64,000 nt of DNA from an uncultured Candidatus Rokubacteria bacterium (GCA_963708025.1 CAVPSB010000014.1:448001-512000), one strand, 5' to 3'; positions 36,973 through 62,761 are shown, counted from the stretch's first letter. Notes: generated by a model from the letters alone, not told the origin. Numbers and translations are program-made.

Positions 36973-37222
36973 CTACGGGTTGGGTAGCTCGAGCAATCCG
37001 ACCAGGCGCGCGCGGTCGAACCCCACGACGACTTCTTCCCCGACCACGATCACCGGGACGGCCATCTGACCGGTCCGCCTGATCAGCTCCTCCCGGCCCT
37101 CGACGTCCGTGCGTGACGTCGATGTCGGTGAACGCGACCCCCTTGGACGAAAGAAACTCTTTCGCCGCTTTGCAGGGGCGTCAGGTGGGGGAACTATAGA
37201 CTGTGACAGGCTTTTCAGTCAC
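36973..37222 (-). CDS. Selenocysteine (UxxC) glutaredoxin/NrdH-like redoxin, ~82 aa, one apparent extra base near 37111
   Basis: GTG 37222: MTEKPVTVYSSPT-TGA(37183-37181)-RPCKAAKEFLSSKGVAFTDIDVT / TDVEGREELIRRTGQMAVPVIVVGEEVVVGFDRARL..NP*. Glutaredoxin motifs (cis-Pro VP, VGFD) continue after the TGA. Confidence 0.85.
37136..37183 (-). promoter_or_regulatory. Bacterial SECIS element
   Basis: mRNA UGA-CGCCCCUGCAAAGCG-GCGAAAG[AGUUU]CUUUCGU-CCAAGGGGGUC; loop 22 nt after UGA with G at loop position 2; lower stem GAC/CCCC with GGGG/GUC. Confidence 0.75.
37146..37221. repeat. Left att site: 76-bp perfect direct repeat
   Basis: Identical to 62685-62760. Confidence 0.95.
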
Positions 37223-38538
37223 GTGGCGTCCTCCGATATCGGGTCACCATTGGCTGGTTGTTGCGGATTTGTTGCGGATTGTACCGGCCTTGGCGCTCCG
37301 TCGTCGAGCCGATTCACGATCACCCGGCGCCGGGTGGGGACCAGGTGTCCATAGTAGTCCACGGTAATTTTGATGCTCGAATGGCCCAGTTGTTTGCTGA
37401 CATAGTGCAGGATGGCCTCGCCGTCCTGTCCGTGGTCCACCGCCTCAGCGATGAGTCGTGTCGCGTAAGTATGCCTCAACCCGTGCGGTTTCCGGTATCG
37501 AACACGGGCCCGCGACAGGAGTCGCCGCCAGATGTTCGAGAACGTCGTGTGGCCGATGGGTTCTTCGGCTCGGTACCACCCCGAGAGGCGGCGGTGGGCC
37601 TGAACCCGGAAATCTCGTCCTGACGGCGTACGTTTCTCGTGGGCTGTCACCCGGCTCTCGGATGGGGGCGGGAACAACCACGGGCCCGCGGGCCCCTCGC
37701 GCTGACGGATCGCCAGGTAGGCCTCCATGTCCGCGACGAGCTGATCGCTCATGTCCACCCGGCGCACCTGGTGGCTCTTCGGGGCGTTGAATCGAGCGGA
37801 GCCGTGCTTGCGCCCACGCCGGCCCTCCGTCCGGCGCACCCACAGCTGACGCACCGCGAGGTCGACGTCTGCGACCTGGAGGCATCGGCCCTCGCCAGGG
37901 CGAAGGCCGGTCCGGGCAAGCGTCAGTACGAGCACGTAGATCTCGCGTGGGAACTCCGCCCGTGCCACGTCTATGAGCTGGCGCAGCTCCTCCGCGGTGA
38001 ACACGGAGAGCCCCACCTCGCGCCGGCGTTCCACATGGCTCGCAAGGAGGAACCGTCCAGCCCGGGCGGCCGGGTTCGCCTGGAGCAGCCCATCCTCCAT
38101 CGCACTGTTCAGACACGAACGCAGGACGCTCAGGCGGAGTGCACGCGTTTTCGATCTGGTACCACTCTGGCGCATGGCGTCCAAGGCCGTCAGAATCTCC
38201 TCGCGACGGATGGCCGTCAACCTGCGGGAGCCGAGCAGCGGTAGCCAGTGCTTCCGAACGATCCGCTGATAGAGATCGGCAGATCCGATCGCGAGATCCT
38301 CCCGCCGGGCAAGCCACGTTTCGGCGTATCCGGCCAGGGTGACGTCGGAGCCTCTCCTCGCTTCGAGGATTCCGAGATCGTCGAGTGAGAGTCGACGCTC
38401 GAGCTCGGCCGCCGCCAGGTACGCCGCCTTGCGCCCGCCCCGGCCGCGCAGTCGGGTCGAGATACTCTTGCGTTGCCCCTTGTGGTCGACCACGAGATAC
38501 CACATCCCGTTCTTGCGGAGCCGCGGCTTGACGCCCAT
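37219..38538 (-). CDS. int: Tyrosine recombinase/integrase
   Basis: Catalytic set appears intact: TGLR, PKS, HGLRH, LGH, YY; N-terminal arm-binding and SAM-like regions. Confidence 0.95.
   Translation of the reverse strand: MGVKPRLRKNGMWYLVVDHKGQRKSISTRLRGRGGRKAAYLAAAELERRLSLDDLGILEARRGSDVTLAGYAETWLARREDLAIGSADLYQRIVRKHWLPLLGSRRLTAIRREEILTALDAMRQSGTRSKTRALRLSVLRSCLNSAMEDGLLQANPAARAGRFLLASHVERRREVGLSVFTAEELRQLIDVARAEFPREIYVLVLTLARTGLRPGEGRCLQVADVDLAVRQLWVRRTEGRRGRKHGSARFNAPKSHQVRRVDMSDQLVADMEAYLAIRQREGPAGPWLFPPPSESRVTAHEKRTPSGRDFRVQAHRRLSGWYRAEEPIGHTTFSNIWRRLLSRARVRYRKPHGLRHTYATRLIAEAVDHGQDGEAILHYVSKQLGHSSIKITVDYYGHLVPTRRRVIVNRLDDGAPRPVQSATNPQQPANGDPISEDAT
37259..37280. promoter_or_regulatory. 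Putative integrase arm-type sites (left)
   Basis: TGTTGCGGATT x2 in tandem; same motif at 62599-62616. Confidence 0.7.
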
Positions 38539-38556
38539 CGTGTGCTCGATCTCGGC

Positions 38557-38826
38557 CTACCGTCCGAGAAACTCGCGCAGCACCGGCGCCACCAGTCGCT
38601 CGACGTCGGATCGACCCTGATTGCGGTACCGGGCTATCCATTCATCGAAATCCGAGCGACGGACCAGGATCTTTCCCTCGACGCGGTAGCACGGGAGCGG
38701 ATGGACTGAGTGGACGAGCCGGTCGCGTAGCCACCGGATCGAGCAGCCCGAGTACGTGGCCAGCGCCCGCAGCGACAGGTAGGGATCCAGCCGCGTCGAC
38801 AGCTCGAGGTTGTCGACCACGACCAA
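38557..38826 (-). CDS. Excisionase-like HTH protein (recombination directionality factor)
   Basis: YLSLRALATYSG..LPCYRVEGKILVRRSDFDEWI; immediately upstream of the integrase. Confidence 0.8.
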   Translation of the reverse strand: MVVVDNLELSTRLDPYLSLRALATYSGCSIRWLRDRLVHSVHPLPCYRVEGKILVRRSDFDEWIARYRNQGRSDVERLVAPVLREFLGR

Positions 38827-39328
38827 CCTTGGCCGGTGGAACGGAGCTCAGGGGTCCCTTGAGCCGGCTCCCACTGTTGTGGAGGCTGGTCGTCTGCTCC
38901 GGCCGGATCGCTGACCGTCACGGTATTCCCTCTTCATACCGTCTCGAGACCACGATCGACTCGCCGTGGTCGATATGCTCCTTTCGGGATCGGCACCCCG
39001 TCCCGTCATTGGCCGATCGCCTCCGTGGAGTTCGTTTGCGTGGAGGCAGTGTGGCTTGCATCGGGGCGTTACGTGGATGGCGTGCTGGGCACGCCACGCT
39101 CGGATGGCTTCCTCGTCACTGAGGGTGTCCGCAGAGATGAGAACATCAGTCGCGACGAATGCATTGGCTCGAGAGCCCACTATCAGGACTCCGCACCGCT
39201 GATCTTCGTGCGGTGTCCAGAGAATGGCGGCTCGGAGACTCGGGTCCTCCTGCCGCGTGCCTGTCGCTGCCATCTGTCTTCCCGTTGCCCGTTAGGCACA
39301 AGACGCTGCGAGCGTCAGGGGGTGTCCT

Positions 39329-39990
39329 TCACGGAGTACCGTGCTCATCGTCCGGATAGGGCTCGGTTCCTGGCGCAGATCCACCTGGACAGGAGCGATT
39401 CGGATCGGGTGCGTTCCTAGCGGCATTCTTGGCCTTCCGGTGCCCGAACCAAGGAGGCGAAGCGGTCCATGCGGGCGCCAGGGCCCGCTCTGCGTCCGGC
39501 CGGCGCTTGAGGAACGCCGAGAGCGCGCGGCCGTCGGCAGCCAAGAGCGGCCAAGGAGCCGCCCCGGCCTCCGTGGCCGCGCGGAAAACGACTGCGGCGC
39601 TGTAGCGGCCCTTCGTGGGGAAGAAGCCGAGCTCCATGCCGTCGAGGGGGAGGGGCTCGCGATCCTGGCGGTGGTGCCGGAGGCGCTCACGGAGGCGTCC
39701 GACCCGAGCCTCGCCGGCCTGGAGGAGCGCCCCGAGCCGCCGTGTTTCGGTGTCATCGGGGACCGGCGCCTCGTCCACGGCCTCGAGGGCGGCCTGGCCG
39801 GCCGGACACCGGTTCACCCAGGGGCAGGTGCCGCAGGCGGTCGAGGGTCGCGGAGGAAAGGCGGCAGGATCTTCCGGGCGGGCCAGGGCGTCGGCGATGA
39901 CGGCCGCCGTCGTCTGTGCCCAGGCGAGCGTCTCGACGGCGTCCGCTCGGGCGAAGGTCGTCCGGGCGACACGGCCGGTGCGCAGGTCCC
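39329..39990 (-). pseudogene. C-terminal fragment of a PD-(D/E)XK (AddB/Cas4-like) nuclease
   Basis: FPPRPSTACGTCPWVNRCP (CxxC-x5-C cluster tail); N-terminus missing, abuts the repeat array. Confidence 0.5.
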
Positions 39991-40007
39991 AACCCCCAAC
40001 CTGACTC

Positions 40008-40800
40008 AGATCGGTGCCCCGCCCCCGAAGGGGCCCGAAAGCCGACGAGATGGAAGACGAACAGCGGCCCCCCCCACCGGATCAGACCGCCGCCGTCCCA
40101 ACTCGCCACCGACCTCCCACGACAGCGCGCGCGGGAGCCGAACGCGCCACGGTGTACCCCGATGTGTCATGCACGCTCTTTCCTCCGCAACCCGATCGAC
40201 CCAGCCCACCGCGACCCAGGGCGATCCGTCGGACGCCACACTTCGTCCCTCACCGACGGCCCGATCCGCAGGAGACCGGACTGCCACTCCCAACCCGACC
40301 CGACAATCCGACACGATCGCTGACAGACTCCTCCCGAGGGTGACGGGGGCCGACGTCCAAGATCGGTGCCCGCCCCCGAAGGGGCCCGAAGGCCGACGAG
40401 ACGGAAGACGGACAGCGGACCTCCCCACCGAATCAGACCGCCGCCGCCTCAGGCGATCACCGACCTCCCACGGCAACGCGCGCAGGAGCCGAAGGCGCCG
40501 ACCCCTCACCGACGACCGCGTTGCTCGGCCCCGGTCTTCCGCGTCCATCCGACAGCCCGTGGTCACCGCGCCACTCCCACAACCGCGACCCACCGACACC
40601 GCGACACGGCCGCAGGCAGACTCCTCCCGAGGGTGACGGGGGCCGACGTCCACGATCGGTGCCCCGGGCCCGAAGGGCGACGAGAGGGAAGATGAACAGC
40701 GGACCCCCAGCGAATCAGACCGGCGCCGCCCCAGGCCACCGCCGACCTCTCACGGCAGCGCGCGCGGGAGCCGAAGGCACCGACCCCTCACGGACGATCA
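40008..40800. repeat. Three degenerate direct repeats of a ~150-190-bp unit, ~300-350 bp apart
   Basis: GATCGGTGCCC..GGGCCCGAA..GACGAGA.GGAAGA..ACAGCGG..ATCAGACCG..CCGACCTC.CACG..GCGCGC.GGAGCCGAA at ~40009, ~40361, ~40654; CAGACTCCTCCCGAGGGTGACGGGGGCCGACGTCCA at 40324 and 40617. Confidence 0.8.
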
Positions 40801-41654
40801 CACCCGCCGCGACGTGGGCGGCCCTGCCCTCCGCATGCCCCGCGCCGATCCGAGGCCCCACGGTCGGACCCCGTCGATCCTCCGGTGCCGCGCGCTGCCG
40901 CCACGCCACTCCACGATTGGTGATCGACTCGCCAGCATAGGAATCTCATTAGGCGTGCCGCTGGGCGGTGCCGCTCGGAGACCCGGCTGGAAGTCGGCGT
41001 CCCTCCAGCGGGTTTTTGATTCGGAGCGCGGCGACGTCGCCCTGACAGGGTGGCTCGTCCTGGCCGGGCCCTCAGCGGCGGAACGATCGCAGCAGCCGGT
41101 CGAGCCGGGCATCGGTGTCGGGCCACGGGTCCGGGGACCCGTCTGGCGCGCGCCCGCCATGGGGCGGATCCGGTCGGGTCACGAGCGCCGCCTCGTTCCC
41201 CGAGGCAGGTCCGTGCGATCGCCGATCGGGCCGGGAGGTCGGGACCCCCTCGCCCCCGGCGCGGCCGTCGTCGGCCCCGGGCGCGTGCCGTGACGAGCGC
41301 CCGCACGGCCTGGCGATCAAGAGCGGGACGATCCGCGTGGTGCGCGTCGGGATCGCCGCGCAGCCGGTCCGAAGGACCGCCTTGATGGCCCGGCCGCGCC
41401 CGCTGGGAGGGAGTGCCTAGACCAGGCCGAGGACCTCCAGGTCCTCGGACCGCTCGAGATTGAAGTACACGCTCAGGTAGGTCTGCGACGAAGACGCGCG
41501 AGACACGGTCATCGCGCGCGGCGAGCAGGGGGACACGCCGCGGCTCCTGCTGGGGCCATGCTCGGCGTCTATCAGATCTCTGATAGACGTCTGATATGAT
41601 TTGATACGCTCGCGGCGTCTCGGAGTTCGCCGCCCGGCTGCCGGGCGTTCTGGT

Positions 41655-41920
41655 GTTGACGCTCTCCATTCTCGCGGTCGCGGGCGCGGGAGACGGCTCG
41701 TAGGAGAGCGCGCCGCGCTCCTCGGGGCCGCCCTCTACGCCGCCAACGGGTTCCTCCTCGACCTCGCCGGCGGCCGGGTTGCGACGGACCACATCGACAC
41801 GCTCTTCGTGTCGCTGGTGGCGCTCGGGGCTTTTCTGTCCGTTGACGAGGCCGACGGCGAGCGCGAGGACTGGCGAAAGCTCGTCGGACTCGGCGCGATC
41901 ACGGGGCTCGCTCTCCTGGA
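41655..41920 (+). pseudogene. Fragment of an ArnT/GT39-like membrane glycosyltransferase
   Basis: GRRLVGERAALLGAALYAANGFLL..TDHIDTLFVSL..GAITGLALL; no credible start or end. Confidence 0.4.
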
Positions 41921-42119
41921 GCGCCGCCAACCCCTGCGCGGTGATCTTGCCCTCCGGCGCGCCGGCCCCGGGTGGGTCCGGCGCCCTGGGGCGGGGAGTC
42001 GACGCAGCGGTTTCCGCCATCACCCCGCTTGGGCGCGGCTCTTCCTTTGCCACGGGACTCGCCCTGCCGGTGTCGAACCCTCACCAAACAGCAAACAGCT
42101 GCAGCTTCCCGAGCGCGCA

Positions 42120-42720
42120 TGGTGCCGGTCGGGACCTGGCGGTCCTTCCGCTGCGCGAGAGGCCGGTCGGCTTGGTTCGCGCTCACCGATCCCGCGCGCA
42201 CGGCATCGACCAGGTCGGGCGGCCGTTCCCGGACGATCCGGTCCAGCTGCCGGGTGGCTCGCTCGCTCATCCCGACCGTCCGTCCTCGCCCACGCTGCGT
42301 GGGGACCGTCGGACCCGAGCCCGCGACGCGTCCACGCCGGAGGTTGGCCGCGCGTCGGTTCACGACGCTGAGCTGGACCTCGGCCTGGGTCAGATCGAGG
42401 ATCAGCCGCCGGAGGTGGGGGGCGTCGATGCGCCGCCGGCCGGCGTCGAGGGCCGCCCTCGTGCTCTCGAGCTGCATGCGGTCGCTCTGCGAGCCCGCCT
42501 CGGGTACGGCGACGAGTCGGACCGGGACCTCCGTCAGGCCGAACGCCCGTGCCAACTCGAGCCGATGCACGCGGTCCACGACGCGCCCGTCCGGCAGGAT
42601 CAGCAACGGGTCCCGGACGCCGGACTCCTTCAGGAGCTGCCGCAGCATCTCCCAGCTCGGCGTTCCGCGGAACGAGGGGATCTCGATGAAGCGGGGCGCA
42701 TACGGTCTGAGCCCTACGAC
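42120..42720 (-). pseudogene. ParB-like N-terminal domain plus HTH protein, degenerate
   Basis: LKESGVRDPLLILPDGRVVDRVHRLELARAFGLTEVPV (canonical DGxHR is altered); GMSERATRQL..DAVRAGSVS. Confidence 0.55.
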
Positions 42721-43029
42721 TGACCGCCACTGGATGGGGCCGACCCGGTCGGCGGAGAGCTCCGATGCCCATACCGGGACGGGGATGGCGCCGCCAGGCC
42801 GCCGCCCCCGTCGGGCTCCAGGACTTCCCCGGAGGGTATGGGCGGGGCGTTGCCGCCGAATGCCGGGGCCAGGGAGAGCGGCTCGCTCATAGTCAGGATG
42901 CCCTCGATGACTACTCGTCAGTCCGGTCCCGCGGACGCCGGGGTCCGCCATGGGAGAGATGGGAACGTGACCCGATGGCCGGCACCCCCGATATCGGCGC
43001 AACCGGTGGGCGCTCGGTGCGCCCCCTCG

Positions 43030-43273
43030 AGCCGCTGGGAGAGGAGCCGACGCGATGTCGCGACCATTGCGCGGATCTCCTCCACTGGCCGGTCGAGGAG
43101 GCGACCGATCTGGTGGGCGGATCGGGCGACATCGTCCTCGAGGCCCCAGTGGAGGGACAGGACGTGCTGGACCTCGGACGACAGAGCCTCGAAGGCGGCG
43201 CGTAGCCGCTCGCGCTCGATGCCTGCGGAGGCGTCTCCGGTCTACGCTGCCGCCGTTGTCGCTCGGTCGCCAT
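43030..43273 (-). pseudogene. Sigma-70 region-4-like HTH protein, frameshifted
   Basis: GGGAGG-ATG at 43273; alternative frame RLRAAFEALSSEVQHVLSLHWGLEDDVARSAHQIGRLLDRPVEEIR. Confidence 0.45.
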
Positions 43274-43362
43274 GCCTCCCTTTCCGGGAGGCTGGCACCT
43301 CCGACCGCCCACACGTCGCTACGTCCGGGCCACCCTCCCGGGGCAGGATGCCCGACCGGGCA

Positions 43363-43480
43363 GGTGATCACGATGACCGATCTCGGTGATCACGACACCG
43401 ATCCCGGTGGTCATGATCGACCGATCTGGGTGATCACGATGGACCGATCCTGGTGCTCACGATGGGCCAAGACGCGCACA
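43363..43480. mobile_element. Solo IS21-family-like end with repeat array
   Basis: Five 21-23-bp units GGTGATCACGATG.ACCGATC ending ..GACGCGCACA (terminal CA); no transposase adjacent. Confidence 0.65.
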
Positions 43481-43661
43481 AGGTCCGCGTCACTACAGCG
43501 TCCCCGTCGTCTAGGCTAGCCTACTAGGACCCGAGATTTTCAATGGGCGGGCGGCGCCTGCACTTCCAGATACTTCCGGCCGGCTTTGGACGTCGGGTTG
43601 TAGCTCTCGTGACAGTTCTGCCATAATCCCGAGGGGATGGCCGACACGGCTTCGGTCGGTC

Positions 43662-46600
43662 ATGACCACCCTGGCTCTCCACAAGCCATGGGGCTACGGC
43701 CAAGGGGGCTTCGCCTCACATATGCTCGTAGCTGAACCGGACATTCCGCGGCCGCCACGTCGTGCACCGGGTAGGCCGCATCGCGTCGTCTCCGCATGTC
43801 TGGTTTCCTTGCGCTTCGCGGGCCGGAGCGCCCGGTCGGCTCTCCTGGCCCTCATGGCGCTCGGTCTGCTCGCCCCCGGTACCCTGGTGGCGGAGGAGCC
43901 AGGATCCCCGAAGGCCGTTCTCATCCTGCTCCCGGACCAGCCGACCCTTCCAGGGACCCAGCTCCTGCTGGCCGGGATACGCGGGCCGCTCGTCACGACC
44001 TGGGGGTCCCGCGTCAGCATCTACAGCGAACACGTGGACATCGAACGCTACCAGGGGGCGGACGTCGAGCGCAGGGTTCGTGATGCGTTCCAAGCCAAGT
44101 ACGCGGGCGTGCCGCTCGATGCCATCGTCGCCTTTCAACCCTCCCCGCTCGGGTTCCTGGCCCGCTGGGGCCGTGACCTCTGGCCCGGGGTGCCGGTCGT
44201 GGTGGCCGGGGTGGACGAGCTCTTGCTGACCCGGCTCGAGCTTCCTCCAAGGGTGGCCGCCATCCCGATGCGGTACGACGTCGAGGGCACGGTGCGCCTG
44301 GCCCTCCGCCTGCTGCCGGAGACCCGGCGAGTGGCGTTGATCAGCGGCGTGTCGCCGCAGAATCGGCACTTCGCCGACCTGCACCGGGAGCGGCTTCGAG
44401 CCTTCGGCGACCGGATGGAGCTGATCGACCTGACCGGCCTGAGCCTGGAGGAGATGCTGACGCGCGTCGCCGCGCTTCCCGAACACTCGATCCTCTTGGT
44501 GTCTCTGGTCTGGATCGACGGTGCCGGGCGATCCCTCGTCGGGCTCGACCTCCTGCCCCGGGTGTCGGCCGCGGCCAACCGCCCCGTGTTCTCCGTGTTC
44601 GGCCCGACGGTTGGGGCCGGCGCCGTGGGGGGCTCGATGGTCGACCTCCTGGAGCTGAGCGCGGAAGCGGGCCGGGTCGCGGTGCGCGTCCTGCGCGGCG
44701 AGGCGGTGCCGCCGTCGGAGGCCAGCCAGGTGAGCCAGCAGGTCGTCGTTGACTGGCGCCAGCTCCGGCGCTGGGGGCTCGACGAGCACCGGCTGCCGCC
44801 CGGCGCGCTGGTGCTCCACCGCGAGCCGACCCTGTGGGAGCAATACCGCTGGGCGGTCGTCTCGTCCCTGGGTGTTCTGGTCAGCCAGACGCTCGTCGTC
44901 GTGGCGCTGCTCTTCGAGCGGCGCCGGCGGCGGCGCGCGCAGGTCGCACTCGAGGACCGCCTGCGCTTCGAGACGCTGCTGACCGAGATCTCCACCGGCT
45001 TCGCCGACCCGCCGGGCGGCGTGCTGCGGGAGCCCGACCGAACACTCCGTCCGACGAACGGCGTCGAGGAGCAGGTCCGCGAAGGCCTCCGCCGGATCGC
45101 CGAAGGGCTCGGCGCGGAGGGCGCGAGCCTCTGGCGGTTCTCGACCGCAGGAGCGTCTCTCGCCGTGTCGTGGTCGCAGGAGGGGCTCAGCGCACCGCCC
45201 TCTGAGATCTCGCTCGATGACTATCCCTTCCTGCGGACGAGGGTGATGCGTGGAGAGGCCCTGCGGTTCCGGAGTCTGGACGAGCTGCCACCCGAGGCGG
45301 GCGTCGATCGGCAGAGTCTCTTGCGACTGGGGGTCCGGTCGTTGGTCGTGGTCCCGTTTGAAGCCACGAGCGCGGAGCCCCGCGCGACCGCCTGCCTGAC
45401 GCTGCGGAATGGGGAGACCTGGCCGGACGACGTCGTCCAGCGGCTTCGGACGGTCGGAGAGATGTTCGCGGGCGCCCTGGCCCGGGCCCAGGCGGTGGCC
45501 GCGCTGAGCGAGAGCGAGGCGCGGTTTCGCTCCATGGCGGATACCGCGCCCGTGCTTATCTGGATGTCCGGTCTCGACAAGGGCTGCACGTTCTTCAACA
45601 AGGGCTGGCTGGACTTCACGGGACGCACCATGGCGAGTGAACTGGGCAGTGGTTGGGTCGAGGGCGTGCATCCCGATGATGTCAACCGCTGTCTCGAAAC
45701 GTGTGTCAGCGCCTTCGACCGTTGACAATCGTTCGCGACGGAATACCGCCTGCGCAGGCACGATGGGGAGTACCGCACCATCGTGGACAAGGGCGTGCCG
45801 CGGTTCGCGCCGGACGGGACATTTCTCGGGTACATCGGGTGCGGCGACGACATCACCGAGCGCAAGCGAGGCGAGGAGCTGCGACGGCAGGTGCTGGAAG
45901 CGGCTCCAAACGCGATGATCATGGTCAACCAGGAGGGCCGGATCACCCTGGTGAACGCCGCCGCGGAGACGGTCTTCGGCTACGCCCGCGAGGAGCTCAT
46001 CGGGTCTGCCATCGAGATCCTGATCCCCGAGCGCTTCCGGTCTGACCACCCGCGCGATCGCACCCACTACTTCGCCGATCCCACGGTGCGGATGATGGGG
46101 GCGGGGCGCGAGCTCTACGGTCGTCGCAAGGACGGTAGCGCGATTCCGGTCGAGATCGGGCTCACGCCCGTCCAGACACCGGAAGGGCTGTTCGTGCTGG
46201 CGTCCGTCGTCGACATCACCAGGCGAAAAGCCGCCGAACTGGAGGAGCAGCGGCGTCGCGCGGAGCTCGCCCACGCGGCGCGCATCTCCACCATGGGCGA
46301 GCTGGCGGCGTCGCTGGCGCACGAGCTGAACCAGCCGCTCACGGCGATCCTGGCGAACGCCCAGACCGCCCAGGAGTGGCTCGCGGCCCCCGCCCCCGAC
46401 CTCGCGGAGCTCCGGGACATGGTGGACGACATCGTCGCCGAGAACATCCGGGCGAGCGAGGTGATCCGGCGGATGCGTGCGATGCTCAAGAAGGGCGAGC
46501 TCCGCTCGGACGCCGTTCGACCTCAATGAAATCGTCCGCGAGGTCACGCGGCTGATCGCCAACGACGCCCTGCTCCGCGGCGCCTCGATTGACCTCGACC

Positions 46601-47004
46601 TGTCGCCGGCGCTGTCGAGGGTCCGGGGCGACGCCGTCCAGTTCCAGCAGGTCCTGCTGAACCTGCTCGTCAACGGACTCCACGCGGTGGCCGATGAACC
46701 CCCGCACCGGCGCCGGTTGATCGTCCGCACCGCCGGCGTGGACGGCGGCGTCGAGGTGTCGGTGCGGGACACGGGCAAGGGGATCGCCGAGAGCGACCTC
46801 CCCCAGGTCTTCACGCCGTTCTTCACTACGAAGGGCGAGGGCCTCGGGGTCGGACTGTCCATCAGCCAGTCGATCGTCGAGACGTTCGGCGGCCGGATCT
46901 GGGCCGAGAACGAGCCCGATGGCGGCGCGATCTTCCGGATCCGCCTGCCGGCCGGCGCGACCGCAGCCGGGCCACCGGGACGCACCGCTGATCTTCCTGG
47001 TTGA
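43662..47004 (+). CDS. Sensor histidine kinase (periplasmic domain-TM-GAF-PAS-PAS-HisKA-HATPase), FixL/NodV-like; frameshifts near 45722 and 46510
   Basis: [60 protein letters not shown]. Confidence 0.85.
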
Positions 47005-47584
47005 CGACGACGCGGGCGTCCGCAAGGCGCTCGCGCGCCTCCTCAGGTCGGCCGGCCACGAGGTCGAAGCGTTCGCCTCGGCCCGCGAGTTCCTCGCCCG
47101 CGAGCGGTACGATGGGCCCGGCTGCCTGGTCCTCGACCTCCGGATGCCGGAGATGACGGGCCTCGAGCTGCAGGACGCTCTGGAGCGCGCTGGTCACACT
47201 ATCCCGGTCGTCTTCATCAGCGGTCACGGAGACATCCCGGCGAGCGTGCAGGCCATGAAGGCCGGGGCGACGGACTTCCTCACCAAGCCGGTGCAGAACC
47301 GTCATCTCCTCGCGGCCATCGAGCAGGCCCTGGCCCGCGCCGCGGCGGCCCGGGCCGACCGGGCCGAGCGGGACGCGGCCCGGGCGCGCATGGCGGGCCT
47401 GACCCCACGCGAGCGCCAGGTGTGCGCGCTGGTGGCCACCGGCCTGCTGAACAAGCAGATCGCCGCCGAGCTCGGAACCGGCGAGAAGAACATCAAGCTG
47501 CACCGGGCCCACGTCATGCAGAAGCTCGGCGTGGGCTCGGTCGCCGAGCTGGTCCGCCTCGTAGACCGCGCCGGTCTCGCCTGA
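46919..47584 (+). CDS. FixJ/NodW-type response regulator (start uncertain)
   Basis: LVDDD, LDLRMP, GHGD, DFLTKP, LTPRERQV..NKQIA..HRAHVMQKL. Confidence 0.9.
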   Translation: MAARSSGSACRPARPQPGHRDAPLIFLVDDDAGVRKALARLLRSAGHEVEAFASAREFLARERYDGPGCLVLDLRMPEMTGLELQDALERAGHTIPVVFISGHGDIPASVQAMKAGATDFLTKPVQNRHLLAAIEQALARAAAARADRAERDAARARMAGLTPRERQVCALVATGLLNKQIAAELGTGEKNIKLHRAHVMQKLGVGSVAELVRLVDRAGLA

Positions 47585-47704
47585 CCCTCGCGGGCTCCCG
47601 CGGGTCAGGCGGCCCTCCCGGGCCGGGCAAAGCGGGCGAGAGTGCTCCGAGTCGTGGCTCGAGCGTAGCTCGGGTCCCGTCCGGTCCGCCCGTCGGCCCG
47701 GGCG

Positions 47705-48082
47705 CTAGCCCTTCGCCGTGGGCGTGATCGCGTGCCTGACAGCCTCCACCAGCCTGTCCCGGTCGAGCGGCTTGCGCAGCCAGGTGACGAATCCTGCGCT
47801 CCGAGATGTCTCGCGAGCGCCCGGGTCATCGCCCGCCGTGATGAAGACGATGGGGATCGCCACCCCATCCTCGAGCAGGGCCTGCCTCAGCTCCACGCCG
47901 CTCATCCCCGTCAGTTTGACATCGAGGACGAGGCAGTCCGGGGTGGATCCGGGCGAGTGCGCGAGGAACTCCTCGGCGGACTCGAATGGCGTCACCGTGA
48001 AGCCCGCGGCCCGCAGGAGGCGGGCGAGAGCCTTCCGAACCGCCGCGTCATCATCGACGAGCGCGACAGTGTGTGCGGTCAT
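47705..48082 (-). CDS. Single-domain response regulator receiver
   Basis: VALVDDD, LDVKL, FITA, LRKP. Confidence 0.85.
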   Translation of the reverse strand: MTAHTVALVDDDAAVRKALARLLRAAGFTVTPFESAEEFLAHSPGSTPDCLVLDVKLTGMSGVELRQALLEDGVAIPIVFITAGDDPGARETSRSAGFVTWLRKPLDRDRLVEAVRHAITPTAKG

Positions 48083-48129
48083 GCGGCTACCATCCAAGGC
48101 CATGGTCAGATATCCGCGAGGTGCCCGCT

Positions 48130-48147
48130 ACTGGACCAAAGTCCAGT
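48130..48147. promoter_or_regulatory. Palindromic operator candidate in a divergent promoter region
   Basis: ACTGGAC-caaa-GTCCAGT. Confidence 0.55.
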
Positions 48148-48410
48148 TGATGTCCCTCCGCCGGGATGCGAGAACTGACGTTCACAGAATACGGTCGAGT
48201 AGGGACACGTGAGACGACCCGCTTGCCGCTGATCGGCGCGTGAGTCGCGACAACGGACGGCGTCCGGGCAATTGCGGCGTGGCAAGGCGTTGCCCAAGTT
48301 CGAGCATGCGAACTAACGGCTGGGCTACGACGACGGAGGGGTGGCCCCCCCGCGTCGGGCGCCGCCGAGCCAACCAGGTACCAACGACCGACAGGACGAG
48401 GAGCAGTCAG

Positions 48411-49110
48411 ATGAAGCGCATTCGCGGATGGCAGATGGCGATGGTGATCACTCTCCTGACGCTCGGCGCCGCGGCGCCGGCCTCGGCGGAATGGTTCGCC
48501 GACCTCTACGTCGGCGGCGCGATCTACACGGACCCCACCATCGAGACGAACGTCCAGACGGCCGCCGGCAGCGTCTCGCGCGAGAGGACCAAGGCAGAAG
48601 CCGACAACGATGTCACCTTCGGCGGTCGCTTCGGCTACTGGCTGGAAAGCCTTCCCTGGCTCGGCTTCGCGAGCGACGTCTCCTACTTTCGAGCCGGAGT
48701 ATCACCCCCAGGGCGGGAGTGGCGCCCTCATCAAGGCCAAGCTCCGGGTGGTCCCGATCACGCCCCTGGTGATGCTGCGGCTGCCGCTGCTCCAGAGCCC
48801 CGAGTATCCGGCCGGCCGGCTCCAGCCGTACGTGGCCGCCGGCCCGGGATTCTTCGTGCTCGACACGACGGTCCGGGTCGCGTCCGGCTTGGGGCCGCAA
48901 GAAGTCTCGGAGACCGGCGTGGACATCGGCGCGGATCTTCGAGCCGGTGTCGCCTGGAACTTCACCCCGAACTGGGCGATCTTCGGCGAGTACCGGTTCA
49001 CCCACTTTTCCGTCTCGCCGAGCCGCAACACCCCGGGGGGGCGCATCTCCACCGACTTCGACATCGACACCAACTCCTTCCTGGCCGGGATCAGCTACCG
49101 CTGGCGATAG
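48411..49110 (+). CDS. Outer-membrane beta-barrel, paralog of 16385-17032; frameshift near 48700
   Basis: ASAEWFADLYVGG, GGRFGYW, PWLGFASDVSYF, LQPYVAAG, C-terminal ISYRWR. Confidence 0.7.
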
Positions 49111-49217
49111 CGCCTCGTAGTGCTGGACATAAGCTCCCGGCCTCGATGAGGCCGGGAGCGAGCTGAGGACGACATGACGGGAAGCAAGCTGGCCTGGTCG
49201 AGCGGGCGAGGGACTCG

Positions 49218-50147
49218 GTGACGGACATCGGGCGATGGGCTTGCCTCGGACTGATGACCATGGTCCTGGCGCTGCTCCCGTCGCGCGGCCATGCGGACGA
49301 ACCGGGGACGCGGGGCCGCGGGTTCGGGCTGCTCGAGTCCACCGCTGGAGGCGACCCCGCATCCGTGGTCGGCCAGAGCACCATCGCCTCGCCGATGCCC
49401 GGGTCCGTGCTGATCGCCCAGGCCGGCGGAACGGGGCCGGAGGTGGGACCGGACGCGCCGGCCGAGGGGTGGCAGTTCCGTCTGGCTCCCTATCTCTGGG
49501 CGCCGCGCACCAAGATGACGCTCGACGTGGGCCGGCTCAGCCAGTTCGACCACCATCGACTTCGTGGACATCGTCCCTCAGCTCCATTTCGCCTTCGCCG
49601 CTCACGTCGAGGCCACGCGGCGAGAGTGGACCGGGTTCCTCGACCTCCTGTACATGAGCGTGGGCCAGAGCGAGACACACGGCGGCATCCCCGTGAGCCT
49701 GGGCCTCCAGCAGGGGCTCTTCGAGTTCGGCGGGACGTACCGCCTCGGCCCCGTGTCGCTGGGCCGGGCGGGCCGGCTCACGTTCGAGCCGCTGGCCGGC
49801 GGCCGCTTCATCTGGGTGCACGGGTCGCTCGGCTTCCCGAACCAGAAGGTCTCGGACAGCGCCAGCGTGATCGACCCGATGGTCGGGGGCCGCATCACCT
49901 ACCACATCACGGACACGGTGGCGCTCTGGTTCCGCGGGGACGTGGCGGGCTTCGGGATCTCCGACAGCCAGACGAAGCTCACGTACAACCTCATCGCGGG
50001 GCGTCGAATGGCGGTTCCGCCACGCGTCCGCCCTGGCTGGCTGGCGCTACATGAACATCGATGTCGAGAAGGGCAGCGGGTCGAGGACCTTCAATGCGGA
50101 CATCGAGATGTACGGGGCCGTTCCTCGGGCTCAACATCCACTTCTGA
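49218..50147 (+). CDS. Outer-membrane beta-barrel protein, several frameshifts
   Basis: WQFRLAPYLWAP, FLDLLYM, DPMVGGR, RGDVAGFG, C-terminal GPFLGLNIHF. Confidence 0.65.
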
Positions 50148-50233
50148 ATCGCGGGGTCCGTCGAGGAGCGCGGGTCGAGAAGCCTGTTGGCCATGAAACA
50201 GGGACCGGCACGGCTCGTCGCTGGAGGCCACTG

Positions 50234-51655
50234 ATGAGATCGATCACGCGCGCAGCCGCCGCACTGTGTCTTGGGGCCATGACGGCGTTTCCGCTAGCCG
50301 CCGGCGCGGAGGAGGCCCCATCGCTGGGCGCGGTGGAGGCGGTCCGCATCGCCATGGACGCGTACATCTACGGCTACCCCCTGGTCACCTTCGACATGGC
50401 CCGCAAGCAGCAGACCAACGTGGCCACGCCGGACGCCGAGCACGCCCCGATGGGGCAAGTGATCAAGATGCGGTCGTATCCCGCGGTGGACAACCACTGC
50501 TGCGCCGCCCCCAACGCCGACACGCTGTACACCGAGGTCTGGCTCGATGTCTCCAAGGAGCCCTGGGTCGTCGGCATTCCCGACATGGGCGACCGCTACT
50601 ACATCGTGCCGATGCTCGACGGGTGGTCGGAGGTGTTCGAGGTGGCGGGCTCGCGCACGACGGGCGGGAAGCCCCAGACGTACGCCATCACCGGTCCGGG
50701 CTGGTCGGGCGCGCTCCCGAAGGATGTGACGCAGGTCAAGTCGCCCACCGGGATGGTCTGGATCCTCGGGCGCATCTACAGCACCGGCACGCCCGAGGAC
50801 TACAAGGCGGTGCACGCCCTGCAGGACAGGTTCTCGGTCGTTCCGCTGAGCGCCTACGGCAAGCCGTACACGCCGCCGCCGGGCGTCGTCGATCCCGGCT
50901 TCGACATGAAGACGTCGGTGCGCAAGCAGGTCAACGCCCTGGACATCGAGGTCTATTTCACCCACCTCGCACAGCTGATGAAGACCAATCCGCCGACCGC
51001 GCAGGATGCGCCGATGGTCGCGCGCATGGCCAGGATCGGGTTGGTCCCGGGGCAGGACTTCGACCCGAGCAAGCTGAGTGTCCTCGACCGAGAGGCCATC
51101 AGGATCGTTCCGAAGCTCGCGCTTCTGGAGATGGGGCTGCACCTGAAGCGGCAGAAGACGACCAACGGATGGCTGTACTTCACCAAGGGCGTGGGCAACT
51201 TCGGCACCGACTACCTGGTGCGGGGCATGGCCAACCTCCTCGGCCCCGGCTGGAACCGCCCGCAGGACGCCGTGTATCCGCTCTCGCAGAAGGATGCGAA
51301 CGGCGACGAGTACGACGGCGCGAAGCACCGGTACGTCATGCGCTTCGAGAAGGGCAAGCTGCCGCCCGCCGAGGCCTTCTGGTCGCTGACGATGTACGAC
51401 GCCGACTTCTTCTTCGTGCCGAATCCGATCGATCGCTACGACCTCGCCCAGCGCGACACGCTGATCGCCAATCCGGACGGCTCGGTGGACCTGTACCTCC
51501 AGGCGGACTCGCCGGGCAAGGACAAGGAGCCGAACTGGCTGCCCGCGCCGAAGGGCAAGTTCAGTCCTGGTGATGCGCATCTACTCGCCCCGGGACACGC
51601 CGCCGTCGATCCTCGACGGTTCTGGACGCCGCCGCCGGTGAAGCGCGTGCCGTAG
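50234..51655 (+). CDS. DUF1254/DUF1214 domain exported protein (C-terminal frame disturbed)
   Basis: DAYIYGYPLV, PNADTLY, FWSLTMYD, NPDGSVDLY, NWLPAP. Confidence 0.88.
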   Translation: MRSITRAAAALCLGAMTAFPLAAGAEEAPSLGAVEAVRIAMDAYIYGYPLVTFDMARKQQTNVATPDAEHAPMGQVIKMRSYPAVDNHCCAAPNADTLYTEVWLDVSKEPWVVGIPDMGDRYYIVPMLDGWSEVFEVAGSRTTGGKPQTYAITGPGWSGALPKDVTQVKSPTGMVWILGRIYSTGTPEDYKAVHALQDRFSVVPLSAYGKPYTPPPGVVDPGFDMKTSVRKQVNALDIEVYFTHLAQLMKTNPPTAQDAPMVARMARIGLVPGQDFDPSKLSVLDREAIRIVPKLALLEMGLHLKRQKTTNGWLYFTKGVGNFGTDYLVRGMANLLGPGWNRPQDAVYPLSQKDANGDEYDGAKHRYVMRFEKGKLPPAEAFWSLTMYDADFFFVPNPIDRYDLAQRDTLIANPDGSVDLYLQADSPGKDKEPNWLPAPKGKFSPGDAHLLAPGHAAVDPRRFWTPPPVKRVP

Positions 51656-51838
51656 CGGTTGGCACATGCCATCGGCGGAACAGCTCGGCCACCGCCCTCC
51701 AGAATCGTCGCGAAAGGTGAGCTGTGGATGCAAAGGGCCAAAGGACTGCGGGCGCAGCTCGCCAGCGCCAGTGAACGAGGCCTTGCGAAGGCGGCGCCGA
51801 GATCGCAAACGCCGACGTTCTGACGCAAGGAGAGAACC

Positions 51839-52630
51839 ATGGAAACCAGGAAGAAGATCAAGTGGGCGATCGGCATCGTCGCCGCCCTCGTCGTCGTCGC
51901 CGCCCTCGTCGTGTATCCCAAGCTGGTCGTGACCCTGCCGAACGACGGCGCTGACGCCAAGCCGTTCACCTTCAAGGACGTGCGCGGGCACCGCTACACC
52001 GAGATGTTCCTCATCGGCGGGAACGCGATCACCAAGGACCTCAAGGCGAACGTCTACAACACCTGGGGTCTCAACGGCGGCGCCACCACCGGGGATTCAT
52101 GTCCCGCGGCGCTGCTGGACAAGGTCGATGTCAAGTCGGTGAAGGAGCAGTACGGTGTGCTTGCCTCGTACAAGAACGGTCCCCGCCTGTGGACGCTGGA
52201 CTGGATCGAGGTCGAGATGGGCAAGGAGCTGGACTTCGGCGGCATGAAAGCACGATGGGTGAACTGGCTGGACATGAAGGGCATCAGCACGGAGCCGGGT
52301 GCCGCCGACTACAAGAACATCACCGTCGGGCGCCACACCAAGTTCGGCTTCGACAAGGGCAAGCAGGTATTCATCCTGGATGACCCGGAGGGCAACTCGT
52401 GGGCCATGAAGTCCTTCAGCCTCATCACCCATCCCGATCAGAAGTTCGAGGAGGCCGGGACCCTCGGCAGCCGCCTGAAGCTTCCCCCGGGCTGGAAGTT
52501 CCGGGCGCCGGTGCTCGAGCAGGACCTGATCCTCACTCCGGACAAGGACGGCATCGCTCACATCACGCAGGATGACTTCGGCAACACCTACGACCGCGTG
52601 GGCGGCCCCTACAGCAACTACAAGCCATAG
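51839..52630 (+). CDS. Membrane-anchored hypothetical protein
   Basis: AAGGAG RBS, N-terminal TM, GC3-biased intact frame; LKLPPGWKFR..ITQDDFGNTY. Confidence 0.75.
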   Translation: METRKKIKWAIGIVAALVVVAALVVYPKLVVTLPNDGADAKPFTFKDVRGHRYTEMFLIGGNAITKDLKANVYNTWGLNGGATTGDSCPAALLDKVDVKSVKEQYGVLASYKNGPRLWTLDWIEVEMGKELDFGGMKARWVNWLDMKGISTEPGAADYKNITVGRHTKFGFDKGKQVFILDDPEGNSWAMKSFSLITHPDQKFEEAGTLGSRLKLPPGWKFRAPVLEQDLILTPDKDGIAHITQDDFGNTYDRVGGPYSNYKP

Positions 52631-52677
52631 CCCGAAACCGCACAGACATCGGCGGGGCAAGTGATGAGGAGGCAGCC

Positions 52678-53237
52678 ATGAAGAGCGGAGACCTCGGCAA
52701 ACGTAGGAGGCACTTCCCGATCGGCGTTTCTCCTGGCGGCAGTAGTGTTGTCACTGGCGGCGTGTGCGACGACTACGACGACTTCTTCCGGAGCGCCCCA
52801 GCTCATGTTCGTGCAGACCGCGGAGGATCTCAAGGTAGACCCTGCCGCGAGCACCATCCGGCTGGTGAAGGTCAACCAGCAGACGCTGTACTTCTCGGAT
52901 CGGCCGCAGCGTATCGCCGGGCATCTCACGATGGCCGACTATCTCAAGGAATGGACAGCGAAAGCCGGCAAGGACAATTTTGGCGCAGACCCGCCGAATG
53001 CCGCGCTCTCCGTCTATGAGCCGGGACAACCCGACAATACGCTTGTCGTGGTCAAGATCACCAACCCGGTGGTCGACGGCGCGGACCTCGTCTACAGCTA
53101 CAGCATCATCAGACGGCACGATGCCCGCCAGTGGCGGCGCGACCTCGCTGTTCATCGACTGGATCGGGGTCGGCGGCGGCGTCGGGGCCGGCTTCCACGG
53201 CGTCGGCGTCGGCGGCCGCGGTCTCGGTGTCCGCTAG
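52678..53237 (+). CDS. Hypothetical lipoprotein (frameshifted)
   Basis: LAAC lipobox; LMFVQTA..TLYFSDRPQR..DPPNA; SLFID in the next frame. Confidence 0.6.
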
Positions 53238-53379
53238 CTCGGGGCGTTGCATGATCACTCGGCGAGTTTCGATGAGTGAAGGGCGGCGCGCGGTTACGGT
53301 CCTCGCGCTGCGCACGGGCGCGCCTGCCGCGGGGCAGGCGCCGCCGGCCCGGCTGAACCAACCGGAGAAGGAGACCAGG

Positions 53380-54163
53380 ATGAGCACATTGAATTTCAGA
53401 ATGGCCGCAGCATTGTTCGCGCTCGGGGCGCTCGCGCTGTCGGCGACCGTCGCCACAGAGGTCCGGGCACAGGCACCGGCGGTGGATCCGGCCGCCACGC
53501 AGATCCTGAAGCGGATGACCGACTACCTCGGCAGCCTGCAGCAGTTCAGCGTGCATACGCAGAACACCCTCGAGGACGTGCTCGACTCGGGGCACAGGGT
53601 CGATTTCGACGTCTCGGCGAACGTGATCATCAGCCGGCCGAACAAGCTGCGCGCCGAGCGCAAGGGCGATCTGATCGACCAGATCTTCTACTACGATGGC
53701 AAGACGCTGACGCTGTACAACCCGTCCGACAAGGTCTATGCGACGGAGCCTGCACCCGGGACGATCGAGGAGCTGCTCGACTTCGCGCGCGAGTCGCTCG
53801 GGCTCGTCCGTCCCGATCGCCGACCTGGTCTACCGCAACGCCTTCCCGCTGCTGATGCAGGATGTGACCTTTGCGGCGGTGGTCGGCAAGGCGGTCATCG
53901 GCGGGGTCAAGTGCGATCATGTGCTCTTCAGCCGCCCGGGTGTCGACTTCCAGGTATGGGTCGCCGACAGCGGCCAGCCGTTGCCGCGCAAGTATGTCGT
54001 CACCGACACAGGAACCCCCGCGCTGCTGAGCGTCACAACGGTCATGAGCGACTGGAACGTGGCTCCGGCCGTGGCCGATGCCCAGTTCACCTTCGTGCCG
54101 CCCCAGGGGACCAAGCCGATCACGTTCATGCCACTGGATACAACCAGCGGCTCCAGCCGCTGA
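53380..54163 (+). CDS. DUF2092 (LolA-like) periplasmic protein, frameshift near 53808
   Basis: LKRMTDYL, RPNKLR, YYDGKTLTLY, DFQVWV..PLPRKYV. Confidence 0.8.
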
Positions 54164-54182
54164 CACCAACAGGAGGAAGCAA

Positions 54183-54676: not shown

Positions 54677-54689
54677 TGAAAAAGACAGG

Positions 54690-54790
54690 CGAACCTGGCC
54701 CGGAACCCGGCGGTCCTGGCGAGCGGAGTGAGCCCGGTCGTCGCGGCGGTCGAGGAGGTCCGCCGTATTCTCGGGCTGCACGCACGTCTG
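54690..54790 (+). pseudogene. Internally deleted remnant of the alpha/beta-hydrolase 3' end
   Basis: Matches ~58840-58899 joined to ~59115-59155 through TCGA microhomology. Confidence 0.6.
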
Positions 54791-54971
54791 AGGAGGACCA
54801 CGAGTGAACGCCAAGGGCGAGGTCCTCATCTGAGGACCAGGAGGGCACCGGTGGGTGGAGGGAAGCCGCAGTAAGTCGCGCCATCACGCGATCGTAGCGC
54901 AGGGTCAGGGACGAGGCAGCGGAGCCGTGGCCGCAGGGAGCGTTCACCATGTCAGTGACAAGGAGGGGCGG

Positions 54972-57270: not shown

Positions 57271-57287
57271 TCAGGGATGGAGCGGCG

Positions 57288-59188: not shown

Positions 59189-59271
59189 CCGCCGAGGACC
59201 ATGGCCGGGAAACACGACCATGCCACCCGATTCGTCGTGGTCGTCATGTCGATCCAGGAGGACTCACGCAC

Positions 59272-59847: not shown

Positions 59848-60030
59848 TGCGGTGGCGCCCGAGGAGCGCGCCCGCACGAGCGTCCGGCAACGGGTGACGA
59901 AAGAGATCATGCGATGCGCCGACGCGACCCTGGCAATGGGCGACACGAACCGACCAGTCGCTCTGGCGGGCTCTCCGCTTATCGTAGTCCCGGTCGACGC
60001 GGGCTCGGGTCGGGCGCGCGGGGGTTCTGA

Positions 60031-62491: not shown

Positions 62492-62495
62492 AGAA

Positions 62496-62566
62496 GCTCG
62501 GCACGGCCGCCCCGGCCGGCGAGCTGGCGGACGCGACGTTGCCCGACACGCTGAAGGCCGGCGAGA
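62496..62566 (+). pseudogene. Diverged 71-bp copy of the chalcone-isomerase-like gene 5' region
   Basis: 64/71 identical to 59337-59407 by manual alignment. Confidence 0.75.
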
Positions 62567-62598
62567 CCCGCACAGGGGCAAAGTGCTCCTGGAAGACC

Positions 62599-62616
62599 TG
62601 TTGCGGATTTGTTGCG
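62599..62616. promoter_or_regulatory. Putative integrase arm-type sites (right)
   Basis: TGTTGCGGATT-TGTTGCG, same motif and orientation as 37259-37280. Confidence 0.7.
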
Positions 62617-62668
62617 TCTCCTGCCGCAGACTGCCGGGAAATGCCGACCAGAGAGCGAGAAGTTACCG

Positions 62669-62761
62669 TTACTTAGCGTGGACCGACGAAAGAAACTCTT
62701 TCGCCGCTTTGCAGGGGCGTCAGGTGGGGGAACTATAGACTGTGACAGGCTTTTCAGTCAT
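62669..62761 (-). pseudogene. Truncated 5' stub of the Sec-glutaredoxin (30 aa if UGA is recoded)
   Basis: AGGAG RBS (62775-62771), ATG 62761: MTEKPVTVYSSPT-U-RPCKAAKEFLSSVHAK*; TACCAT -10-like box at 62783-62778. Confidence 0.8.
62685..62760. repeat. Right att site: 76-bp perfect direct repeat
   Basis: Identical to 37146-37221. Confidence 0.95.

Follow-up and report, generated by a model that had tools for sequence, protein, structure and literature searches.

Integrases that target transfer RNA (tRNA) and transfer-messenger RNA (tmRNA) genes, including those of islands at selC, the gene for the selenocysteine (Sec) tRNA (tRNA-Sec), act on sequences that are frozen by RNA structure and contain stem dyads. 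At tRNA sites, the block of identity runs from the crossover to the end of the gene that needs restoration. Surveys of prokaryotic selenoproteomes describe glutaredoxin-like proteins in which Sec (U) takes the place of the first active-site cysteine (Cys) and a hairpin follows shortly after the UGA codon, and we know of no link between such a Sec-glutaredoxin and a mobile element. Among protein-coding targets, the passages of Farrugia et al. (2015; PMC4482086) drawn on here describe dusA-specific integrases that insert into the 5' end of dusA, replace it with island sequence and leave a remnant, with 21-bp semiconserved repeats. A structured-RNA target is described in the portion of PMC12540744 considered here, a phage attachment site in ffs, the 4.5S RNA gene, in Enterococcus. 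Here we describe a locus in a stretch of 64,000 nucleotides (nt) from an uncultured Candidatus Rokubacteria bacterium (GCA_963708025.1, CAVPSB010000014.1:448001-512000), hereafter the window. It very probably holds a 25.5-kb integrative island of a Rokubacteria-type soil bacterium, whose lambda-type integrase and HTH_17 protein insert site-specifically into the 5' end of a Sec-glutaredoxin gene. The genome of the window is called G000; G003, G012, G013, G015, G018, G020 and other such labels denote relatives, and G020:C39, for example, gives genome and contig.

The island is bracketed by a direct repeat, detected by a repeat search of the window, in which 37146-37221 equals 62685-62760 at 76/76 bases, with the copies 25,539 bp apart. 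Across the whole 8.17-Mb assembly the 76-mer occurs at just these two places, and short-word blastn with the 76-mer returned no further match longer than 21 nt. Because the DNA outside the two copies differs on both sides, leaving each with unique flanks, the repeat is not a collapsed or duplicated assembly block. A first-pass annotation of the window, which had claimed a perfect 76-bp repeat bracketing 25.5 kb together with an integrase, is thus borne out. Its placement of the repeat's beginning at the start codon needs a small correction: the repeat does run through a UGA codon and a hairpin, but on the minus strand it starts at the second base of the start codon and ends where the pairing of that 9-bp hairpin ends, and base 1 lies outside, being A at the right copy and G at the left. 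From the perfect repeat and the reading frame, the integrase-side copy (37146-37221, minus strand) is assigned as attL, fused to the 3' part of the glutaredoxin gene. The far-side copy (62685-62760, minus strand) is assigned as attR, which lies behind an older ATG start and is followed by the P' arm of the element. The direct repeats at both island ends are part of the target gene, the arrangement of a site-specific integrative element. No tRNA or tmRNA gene lies within the window, which rules out the repeat as a tRNA fragment.

Read on the minus strand, the right copy belongs to a frame that begins with ATG (62761-62759) behind a Shine-Dalgarno-like GAGGAG and reads MTEKPVTVYSSPTURPCKAAKEFLSS. 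This frame enters unrelated element DNA and stops after 30 codons, which makes 62669-62761 a displaced 5' gene fragment that holds the ATG, the UGA and the complete hairpin. The left copy starts with GTG (37222-37220) and has the same 25 codons, followed by SKGVAFTDIDVTH and the rest of the glutaredoxin. This GTG overlaps the TGA stop of the integrase gene (GTGA), and a GGAGGA motif lies 6 nt upstream of it, within the integrase coding sequence. The restored Sec-glutaredoxin gene (36973-37222, minus strand; GTG start, UGA as codon 14) carries a +1 frameshift in the assembly, as judged from the frame and from intact orthologues. Its frame slips by one base after codon 38, the extra base being one of two C's at 37107-37108, and the remainder (DVEGREELIRRTGQMAVPVIVVGEEVVVGFDRARLVGLLELPNP, stop 36975-36973) continues in the next frame; in G020 the restored gene is intact. 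Promoter matches around the locus were too weak for use: one of consensus level in the integrase 3' end (37307-37278, minus strand) and one per repeat copy from the start codon (37222-37193 and 62761-62732).

The in-frame UGA (37181-37183, twin 62720-62722, minus strand) occupies codon 14, the first active-site position of a UxxC motif. The G020 orthologue reads through it into a complete frame that matches the Pfam Glutaredoxin family PF00462 at 66.7 bits (cut-off 22.9) when U is read as C; the PF00462 scores obtained in this way were 66.7 and 62.7 bits. A pattern accepting U or C was run against 45 loci in relatives belonging to the same family and order. The gene or a paralogue was present in 38/45, as VYSSPTU.PC or VYWSTTUQSC types, with TGA at this position in 38/38 and a Cys codon in 0/38; seven loci had no pattern match, and five of those seven keep a 13-mer of the hairpin. 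The frame downstream of the UGA is conserved in the homologues. The machinery for Sec is encoded in the same genome: contig C32 holds a cluster of selA (597.8 bits), selB (371.9 bits) and the tRNA-Sec gene (76.2 bits), and selD is present as well at 398.4 bits, all above their family cut-offs. By every computational criterion applied, the target is a genuine selenoprotein gene, and we infer that Sec is actually inserted at its UGA.

Three further observations concern Sec genes in these genomes. The best selD match (G000:C7:91381-92304) holds one in-frame TGA, which probably makes selenophosphate synthetase another selenoprotein of this organism. UxxC glutaredoxin-like proteins also form a second, paralogous family (VYWSTTUQSCH type; loci L072, L075, L078-L080, L082 and L090-L092), which carries a near-identical KEFLSS-coding hairpin, and no integrase was seen alongside within the ~250 nt of flank examined at each locus. 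In G009:C66, the TPR gene (29461-29866) and the glutaredoxin gene (7263-7486), which are adjacent in other genomes, lie ~22 kb apart, and something may have inserted at the 3' side of the glutaredoxin gene there.

The hairpin occupies 37146-37166 (twin 62685-62705, minus strand), begins 14 nt after the UGA and consists of a 9-bp stem closed by a GUU loop, GGCGAAAGA-GUU-UCUUUCGUC, as defined by alignment and fold. The outer edge of the repeat coincides exactly with its last paired base. In an alignment of 38 distinct sequences, CGAAAGAGTTTCTTTCG is almost invariant, synonymous positions included, while neighbouring codons vary. Stem partners pair in 97.1% of 342 cells, compared with 49-68% when the partner is slid by 1-3 columns. 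The single-sequence fold has an energy of -20.2 kcal/mol (z -2.21). Bacterial selenocysteine insertion sequence (SECIS) elements follow a simple rule: some 16-37 nt downstream of the UGA, a stem-loop presents a G in its apical loop. The hairpin, a stem-loop soon after the UGA whose apical loop contains G, fits this rule. The single-sequence fold adds a lower stem between the UGA region and bases outside the repeat; the alignment fold lacks it, and it was not adopted. Both features that had been proposed for this gene from the window itself, a TGA at the first glutaredoxin active-site position and a SECIS-like hairpin inside the repeat, therefore hold up: the former is U in 38/45 loci and never Cys, with the frame conserved beyond it, and the latter is paired and near invariant across the 38 sequences.

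The integrase gene abuts the left copy. It encodes an intact tyrosine integrase of 439 residues (37219-38538, minus strand; PF00589 68.7 bits, cut-off 27.1; phrog_1 E 1.3e-56). Its motifs TGLRPGE, HGLRHTYAT and LGHSSIKITVDYYGHL do not vary among four aligned members of its clade, and the alignment matches them to the XerA catalytic motifs; the catalytic roles (Arg, His-x-x-Arg, His, Tyr) were assigned by this alignment together with general knowledge of the motifs. Residues 1-66 precede the SAM-like/core-binding domains and match no Pfam arm-binding family. Upstream of the integrase lies an 89-residue HTH_17 protein (38557-38826, minus strand; PF12728 30.4 bits), a candidate excisionase (xis), or recombination directionality factor, which by its family presumably acts in excision. 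Two small open reading frames (ORFs) without a family follow (38848-39273 and 39292-39756, within 38848-39756, minus strand), in a module shared with the G020:C39 element. Third-position GC is 0.78 in the integrase gene (int) and 0.81 in xis, versus 0.90-0.91 in flanking host genes.

Both ends of the island also carry candidate arm-type integrase sites. The P arm (37259-37279, plus strand) consists of two tandem TGTTGCGGAT copies within the int 3' end. The P' arm (62575-62684, plus strand) is a conserved element end, 96% identical to one in G012:C9, where it also follows an att copy, and it contains the same 18-mer in the same orientation. This 18-mer, two copies of a 10-mer, lies at 37259-37276, 38 nt inside the left repeat copy, and at 62599-62616, 69 nt inside the right one, and occurs exactly twice in the window versus 0.05 times expected by chance. 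The same motif pair is present in the int 3' ends of G020 and G015, and analogous paired motifs occur in other element types. The layout is that of arm-type integrase sites distinct from the core, and the motifs are putative binding sites.

Relatives of the integrase are few and share its target. Matches at E<=1e-45 occur in 4/251 genomes of the phylum (G000, G003, G015 and G020), all from one family. In a collection of 5.8 billion proteins, just five clusters are closer than 69% identity and the next stands at 43%, so the clade is small; close homologues there include P0005 (84%), P0006 (94%), P0007 (69%) and P0029 (91%). Compared with the G000 integrase, the copies in G020:C39 and G015:C1 are each 95% identical, that in G020:C75 is 85-91% identical and in pieces, that in G020:C5 is 72% identical with its N-terminus cut by an insertion sequence, and a remnant in G012:C11 is 88% identical over 51 residues. 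The fragment in G020:C6 is 64% identical, and its 3' end runs off the contig. A glutaredoxin start lies directly 3' of the integrase in 6/6 clade copies with a readable 3' end (G000, G020:C39, G015:C1, G020:C5, G020:C75 and the G012:C11 remnant), from four genomes and two genera. At each of these junctions, G[T/C]G overlaps the int stop and is followed by the glutaredoxin 5' sequence. The hairpin 13-mer is absent from the loci of six integrases that are more distant (36-47% identity). The proposal of the first-pass annotation that this integrase family targets a selenoprotein gene is accordingly supported, since the check it had suggested, that the 3' ends of homologues abut a UxxC glutaredoxin start, was run and all six readable copies agree. 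Its claim of an intact integrase and an excisionase at the start of the element stands for the integrase, which is full length with its catalytic motifs; the excisionase is an HTH_17 candidate by family match.

Other integrase-related sequences were seen on the way. An isolated attP-like unit lies far from the glutaredoxin locus at G012:C9:213520-213756 (L057 8521-8757); it consists of an integrase gene's final 50 nt, a single att copy and, at 91-96% identity, 110 nt of the far arm seen in the window. Just upstream of the 72% integrase in G020:C5 (L041 246-1277) is an insertion-sequence-like ORF, transposase-like by sequence reading alone, that apparently truncates the integrase N-terminus. 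A scan of metagenome_contigs with the integrase alignment gave only integrases of 25-30% identity, one of them beside a tRNA-Arg gene, and added no new clade context.

Comparison with relatives records the history of the site. G000 and G020 belong to different genera, and their nucleotide identity is 80.7% in the TPR gene, 82% in the glutaredoxin 3' part, 86.8% in the repeat (att), 93.7% in int, 96.3% in xis and 84-86% in the next two ORFs; homology ends at 39987, and the cargo beyond is unrelated. Three unrelated types of far arm (A, B and C) follow att copies, each with its own paired motif. Junctions that run from int through att into a far arm are found in G020:C75, G012:C9 and G012:C11b. 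G020:C39 carries int, att, the gene 3' part and TPR, and G020:C75 carries int, att and far arm B. In G020:C13, an upstream flank, att and far arm B stand together, and synteny links this flank to the sequence that precedes the gene in G018 and G004. Two additional att copies are found in G012:C11, at 24 and 34 kb upstream of its gene, one of them behind an integrase remnant. As read from these contigs, the G020 and G012 junctions show repeated or tandem use of the site.

The site has seen earlier use. Upstream of a gene that looks unoccupied, and colinear with its start, G018 retains a fossil of an integrase C-terminus (residues 335-413, 51%, E 1e-14), as does G013 (residues 327-413, 36%, E 1e-11). 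At E<=1e-10, none of 20 relatives shows a syntenic counterpart of the window's right flank (62761-64000), and a 101-nt match to G013 emerged only from local blastn at higher sensitivity. Within that flank, the segment 62885-62984 (minus strand), which precedes the ATG by 124-223 nt, shares 83% identity with the G013 fossil region over 101 nt. Both lie equally far from their start codons, and through this transitive match the segment is a probable fossil of an older integrase C-terminus. Compared directly with the integrase it shows weak similarity (BLASTP E 0.013 across 14 residues; for the colinear part, tblastn E 0.35 or worse). Since the match to G013 keeps its spacing to the start codon, the "native" 5' end that precedes the right copy was probably itself left by an older element. 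In nine family members (G001-G006, G009, G010 and G017), the 1-2.5 kb preceding the gene contain nothing that resembles an integrase. In G012, no integrase was found upstream of the full gene, where a Phd/PIN pair and a hydrolase lie instead, and the element type beside that gene has lost or never had an adjacent integrase. The pair, in G012:C11 (L051 18428-19206), consists of a Phd/YefM-like antitoxin (weak, E 0.0011) and a PIN-domain toxin directly upstream of the glutaredoxin gene.

The unoccupied site is best approached through G013 and through metagenomes. In G013, the fossil, one gene copy and the TPR gene are contiguous without an island, which makes it the closest available picture of the pre-insertion site, a cross-genus arrangement resembling an empty site. 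The host flank is present in runs from 14 studies of soils, wetlands and sediments, and contigs of four runs were compared with 34001-54000. A contig of run X20 (391 nt, depth 12.7) matches 36960-37221 with 13 differing letters; the match stops exactly at the boundary between repeat and integrase, and the contig goes on for 112 letters more. A close relative whose site is empty, or occupied in another way, could give such a contig. Contigs of X20, X1 and X3 cover the flank but hardly or not at all the int/xis region, which is not evidence of absence. None of the 15 contig joints listed bridges the island, whose two ends do not fit together into 20 kb. The X20 contig and one from X1 each have a 1-nt deletion at 37112, 4 nt away from the presumed extra base of the glutaredoxin gene, so the frameshift is absent from these two populations.

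These results are consistent with the following mechanism. The order of attP, reconstructed from the junctions, would be the int 3' end with its two 10-bp arm-type repeats, a GTG overlapping the int stop, the 76-bp copy and the 110-bp far arm. The 76-bp copy would supply the first 25 codons of the gene, UGA and entire SECIS hairpin included. Recombination would split the glutaredoxin gene just after the hairpin, and the element-borne copy would replace the lost 5' end, so that a full-length, UGA-containing frame persists. The gene stays whole because the element carries its own copy of these codons with the UGA and the hairpin. The old 5' end would be left as a stub at the far end of the island. 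The restored frame would be translationally coupled to the integrase gene and is probably co-transcribed with it. The element is presumably still mobile.

Several findings weigh against this reading. Firstly, the hairpin is nearly without covariation, with one compensatory pair, and its support is conservation. No Rfam family matches it and none reaches the gathering level in the window; a scan of 37080-37260 at E<=10 returned two chance-level matches only. The second point is that polymorphisms among 11 att copies do not map the crossover. Thirdly, the restored gene is frameshifted in this assembly and likewise in G015. This frameshift and a sensor histidine kinase in the cargo that is split into three plus-strand ORFs (43662-45725, GAF/PAS; 45783-46529, PAS/HisKA; 46477-47004, HATPase_c) are compatible with decay as well as with indel errors in the assembly. 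The ORFs scanned (30 in Pfam, 10 in PHROGs) included no recognisable gene for transfer, replication or packaging. The G000 copies are 100% identical, but the integrase-side copy of the sister elements with 95% identical integrases differs at 10/76 positions. Identical copies imply that attP equals attB under any crossover, by conversion homogenisation or by long residence in the host lineage. Finally, of the empty site and the circular junction that the first-pass annotation had pointed to, the cross-genus arrangement in G013 and the X20 contig ending at 37221 supply a likeness of the former, but a same-species empty site and the circular junction were not recovered in the comparison with 34001-54000, which covers one end of the island.

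Where the crossover falls determines what part the hairpin plays. Far arm A shares identity with the gene as far as the hairpin end; in far arms B and C the identity extends to GAGTTTCTT, which takes in four bases of the 3' stem arm. The G020:C5 junction breaks earlier; since its downstream sequence is shared with DNA beyond far arm A in G012:C9, this break is a secondary deletion, and the far-arm limits then place the crossover at or 5' of the hairpin loop. A crossover in the hairpin and one close to the UGA each need one coincidence or one conversion event. We suggest tentatively, as possible rather than probable, that the hairpin-encoding DNA, a 9-bp dyad with a 3-nt spacer, serves as the integrase core site, as tRNA stems do for other integrases, and that the recoding signal makes a landing pad by freezing the sequence across a bacterial order. 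If so, the element must carry a working UGA and SECIS in its attP. Insertion would then bring the selenoprotein under the integrase's transcription and, through the GTGA overlap, its translation, and would couple the state of the element to selenoprotein expression.

A credible alternative, which we place somewhat short of an even chance, is that the integrase reads plain conserved DNA within the 76 bp and that the UGA and hairpin are bystanders, carried because the whole 5' end is needed to rebuild the gene. Tyrosine integrases read DNA, not RNA structure, and with the crossover unmapped by polymorphisms, ACCTGACGCCCCTGC around the UGA, common to 10/11 att copies, could equally be the core. 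That account leaves aside that all three far-arm types keep identity with the gene through the 5' stem and the loop, beyond what restoration needs, and the junction that breaks earlier, in G020:C5, is explained by secondary deletion. A hairpin with a 9-bp dyad has, moreover, the usual geometry of a core site, and this one is the most invariant DNA of the gene across the 38 sequences.

It is unlikely, in our estimate, that the island, although of the origin proposed here, is a decaying relic that is no longer mobile, fixed in the genome with its repeats kept identical by gene conversion. Such a relic would account for the frameshift, the histidine kinase in three ORFs, the lack of transfer genes among the scanned ORFs and copies that are 100% identical although sister elements carry a different one, and decay is common at the locus, with integrase fossils in G018, G013 and G012. 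It sits poorly with a full-length integrase ORF that has its catalytic motifs, an intact xis and intact arm motifs at both ends. Because the frameshift is absent from two independent metagenome contigs, and indels relative to those contigs are frequent (at least 12 in 20 kb), the broken frames are better ascribed to assembly indel errors than to decay; the split kinase and the frameshifted glutaredoxin together suggest such errors. Highly improbable, finally, is that the duplicate is an assembly artefact or arose by a process other than site-specific recombination: the genome is metagenome-assembled with 8.18% estimated contamination and shows indel-type differences from other populations, but each repeat copy has unique flanks on both sides, the same integrase-gene junction occurs in three other independently assembled genomes, and the far arm recurs beside an att copy in G012:C9 at 96% identity.

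Between the module shared with G020 and the P' arm lies variable cargo (39988-62574, no strand assigned) that is not homologous to the cargo of G020:C39. Besides the split kinase it encodes two response regulators, LuxR-type and single-domain, as well as DUF1254/DUF1214, DUF2092, Ysc84 and Lnb_N proteins, an MscS channel and several ORFs without a family. Among the 30 ORFs there is no relaxase, coupling-protein or type IV secretion family, with remote homologues possible among the several family-less ones, and the ORFs scanned against Pfam and PHROGs include no capsid, terminase, portal or tail gene. No relative of the element was found in viral_contigs, and a plasmid collection gave only matches below 28% identity. 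Judged by its recognisable gene content, the element is neither an integrative conjugative element nor a prophage. A poorly coding stretch of the cargo (40018-40781) holds three ~131-nt units spaced 282-351 nt apart. Related arrays occur at G000:C18:482060-482700, at G000:C10:1452-1642 and in the G020 element (L052 6-477), and metagenome contig depth is raised over the array in X20 and X3.

The locus would define a new class of attachment site for tyrosine integrases, in which a recoding signal freezes the nucleotides of a protein-coding stretch. It lends support to a general view in which mobile elements select DNA that RNA structure has rendered invariant and dyad-symmetric, irrespective of what the RNA does. 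An element that carries a Sec codon and a SECIS purely to repair its target also offers a natural system for the minimal bacterial SECIS sequence. Because gene callers break the target ORF at the UGA, standard island finders miss such islands as well as the att sites used by this integrase clade. The pair of integrase and attP is a candidate tool for Rokubacteria-type genomes, for which we know of no genetic tools. Within the searchable full-text literature, island-catalogue supplementary tables lying outside its scope, no integrase or attachment site was reported together with SECIS, selenocysteine, selenoprotein or glutaredoxin. The matches in that literature were staphylococcal "SeCI" islands or selenocysteine in other contexts, and the one combining Rokubacteria with selenoprotein concerns another phylum.

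This is a real site-specific island with a new class of target, and its mechanism is a variant of that of 5'-end-replacing islands. Like islands at tRNA and tmRNA genes, it carries a copy of the displaced part that keeps the target functional, and its site shows tandem accretion and fossil integrases. Unlike them, it targets an RNA structure that is cis-acting inside the coding region of an mRNA, and the 5' rather than the 3' end is replaced. The closer likeness is to the dusA islands, as far as the passages of PMC4482086 drawn on here describe them: a tyrosine integrase in the 5' end of a protein gene, a new 5' end supplied by the island, a remnant, direct repeats and varied cargo. The insertion is in a gene of the glutaredoxin family, so the resemblance to dusA-specific islands lies in the mode of action only. 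Compared with the same passages, the target here is a selenoprotein gene whose replaced part holds a recoded UGA and a SECIS hairpin, the identity block is 76 bp and perfect rather than 21 bp and semiconserved, and the new start codon overlaps the integrase stop. With the ffs site, as presented in the portion of PMC12540744 considered, the locus shares an unusual target of a temperate element that encodes structured RNA; there the target is a non-coding RNA gene, whereas here it is a protein gene with a recoding signal.

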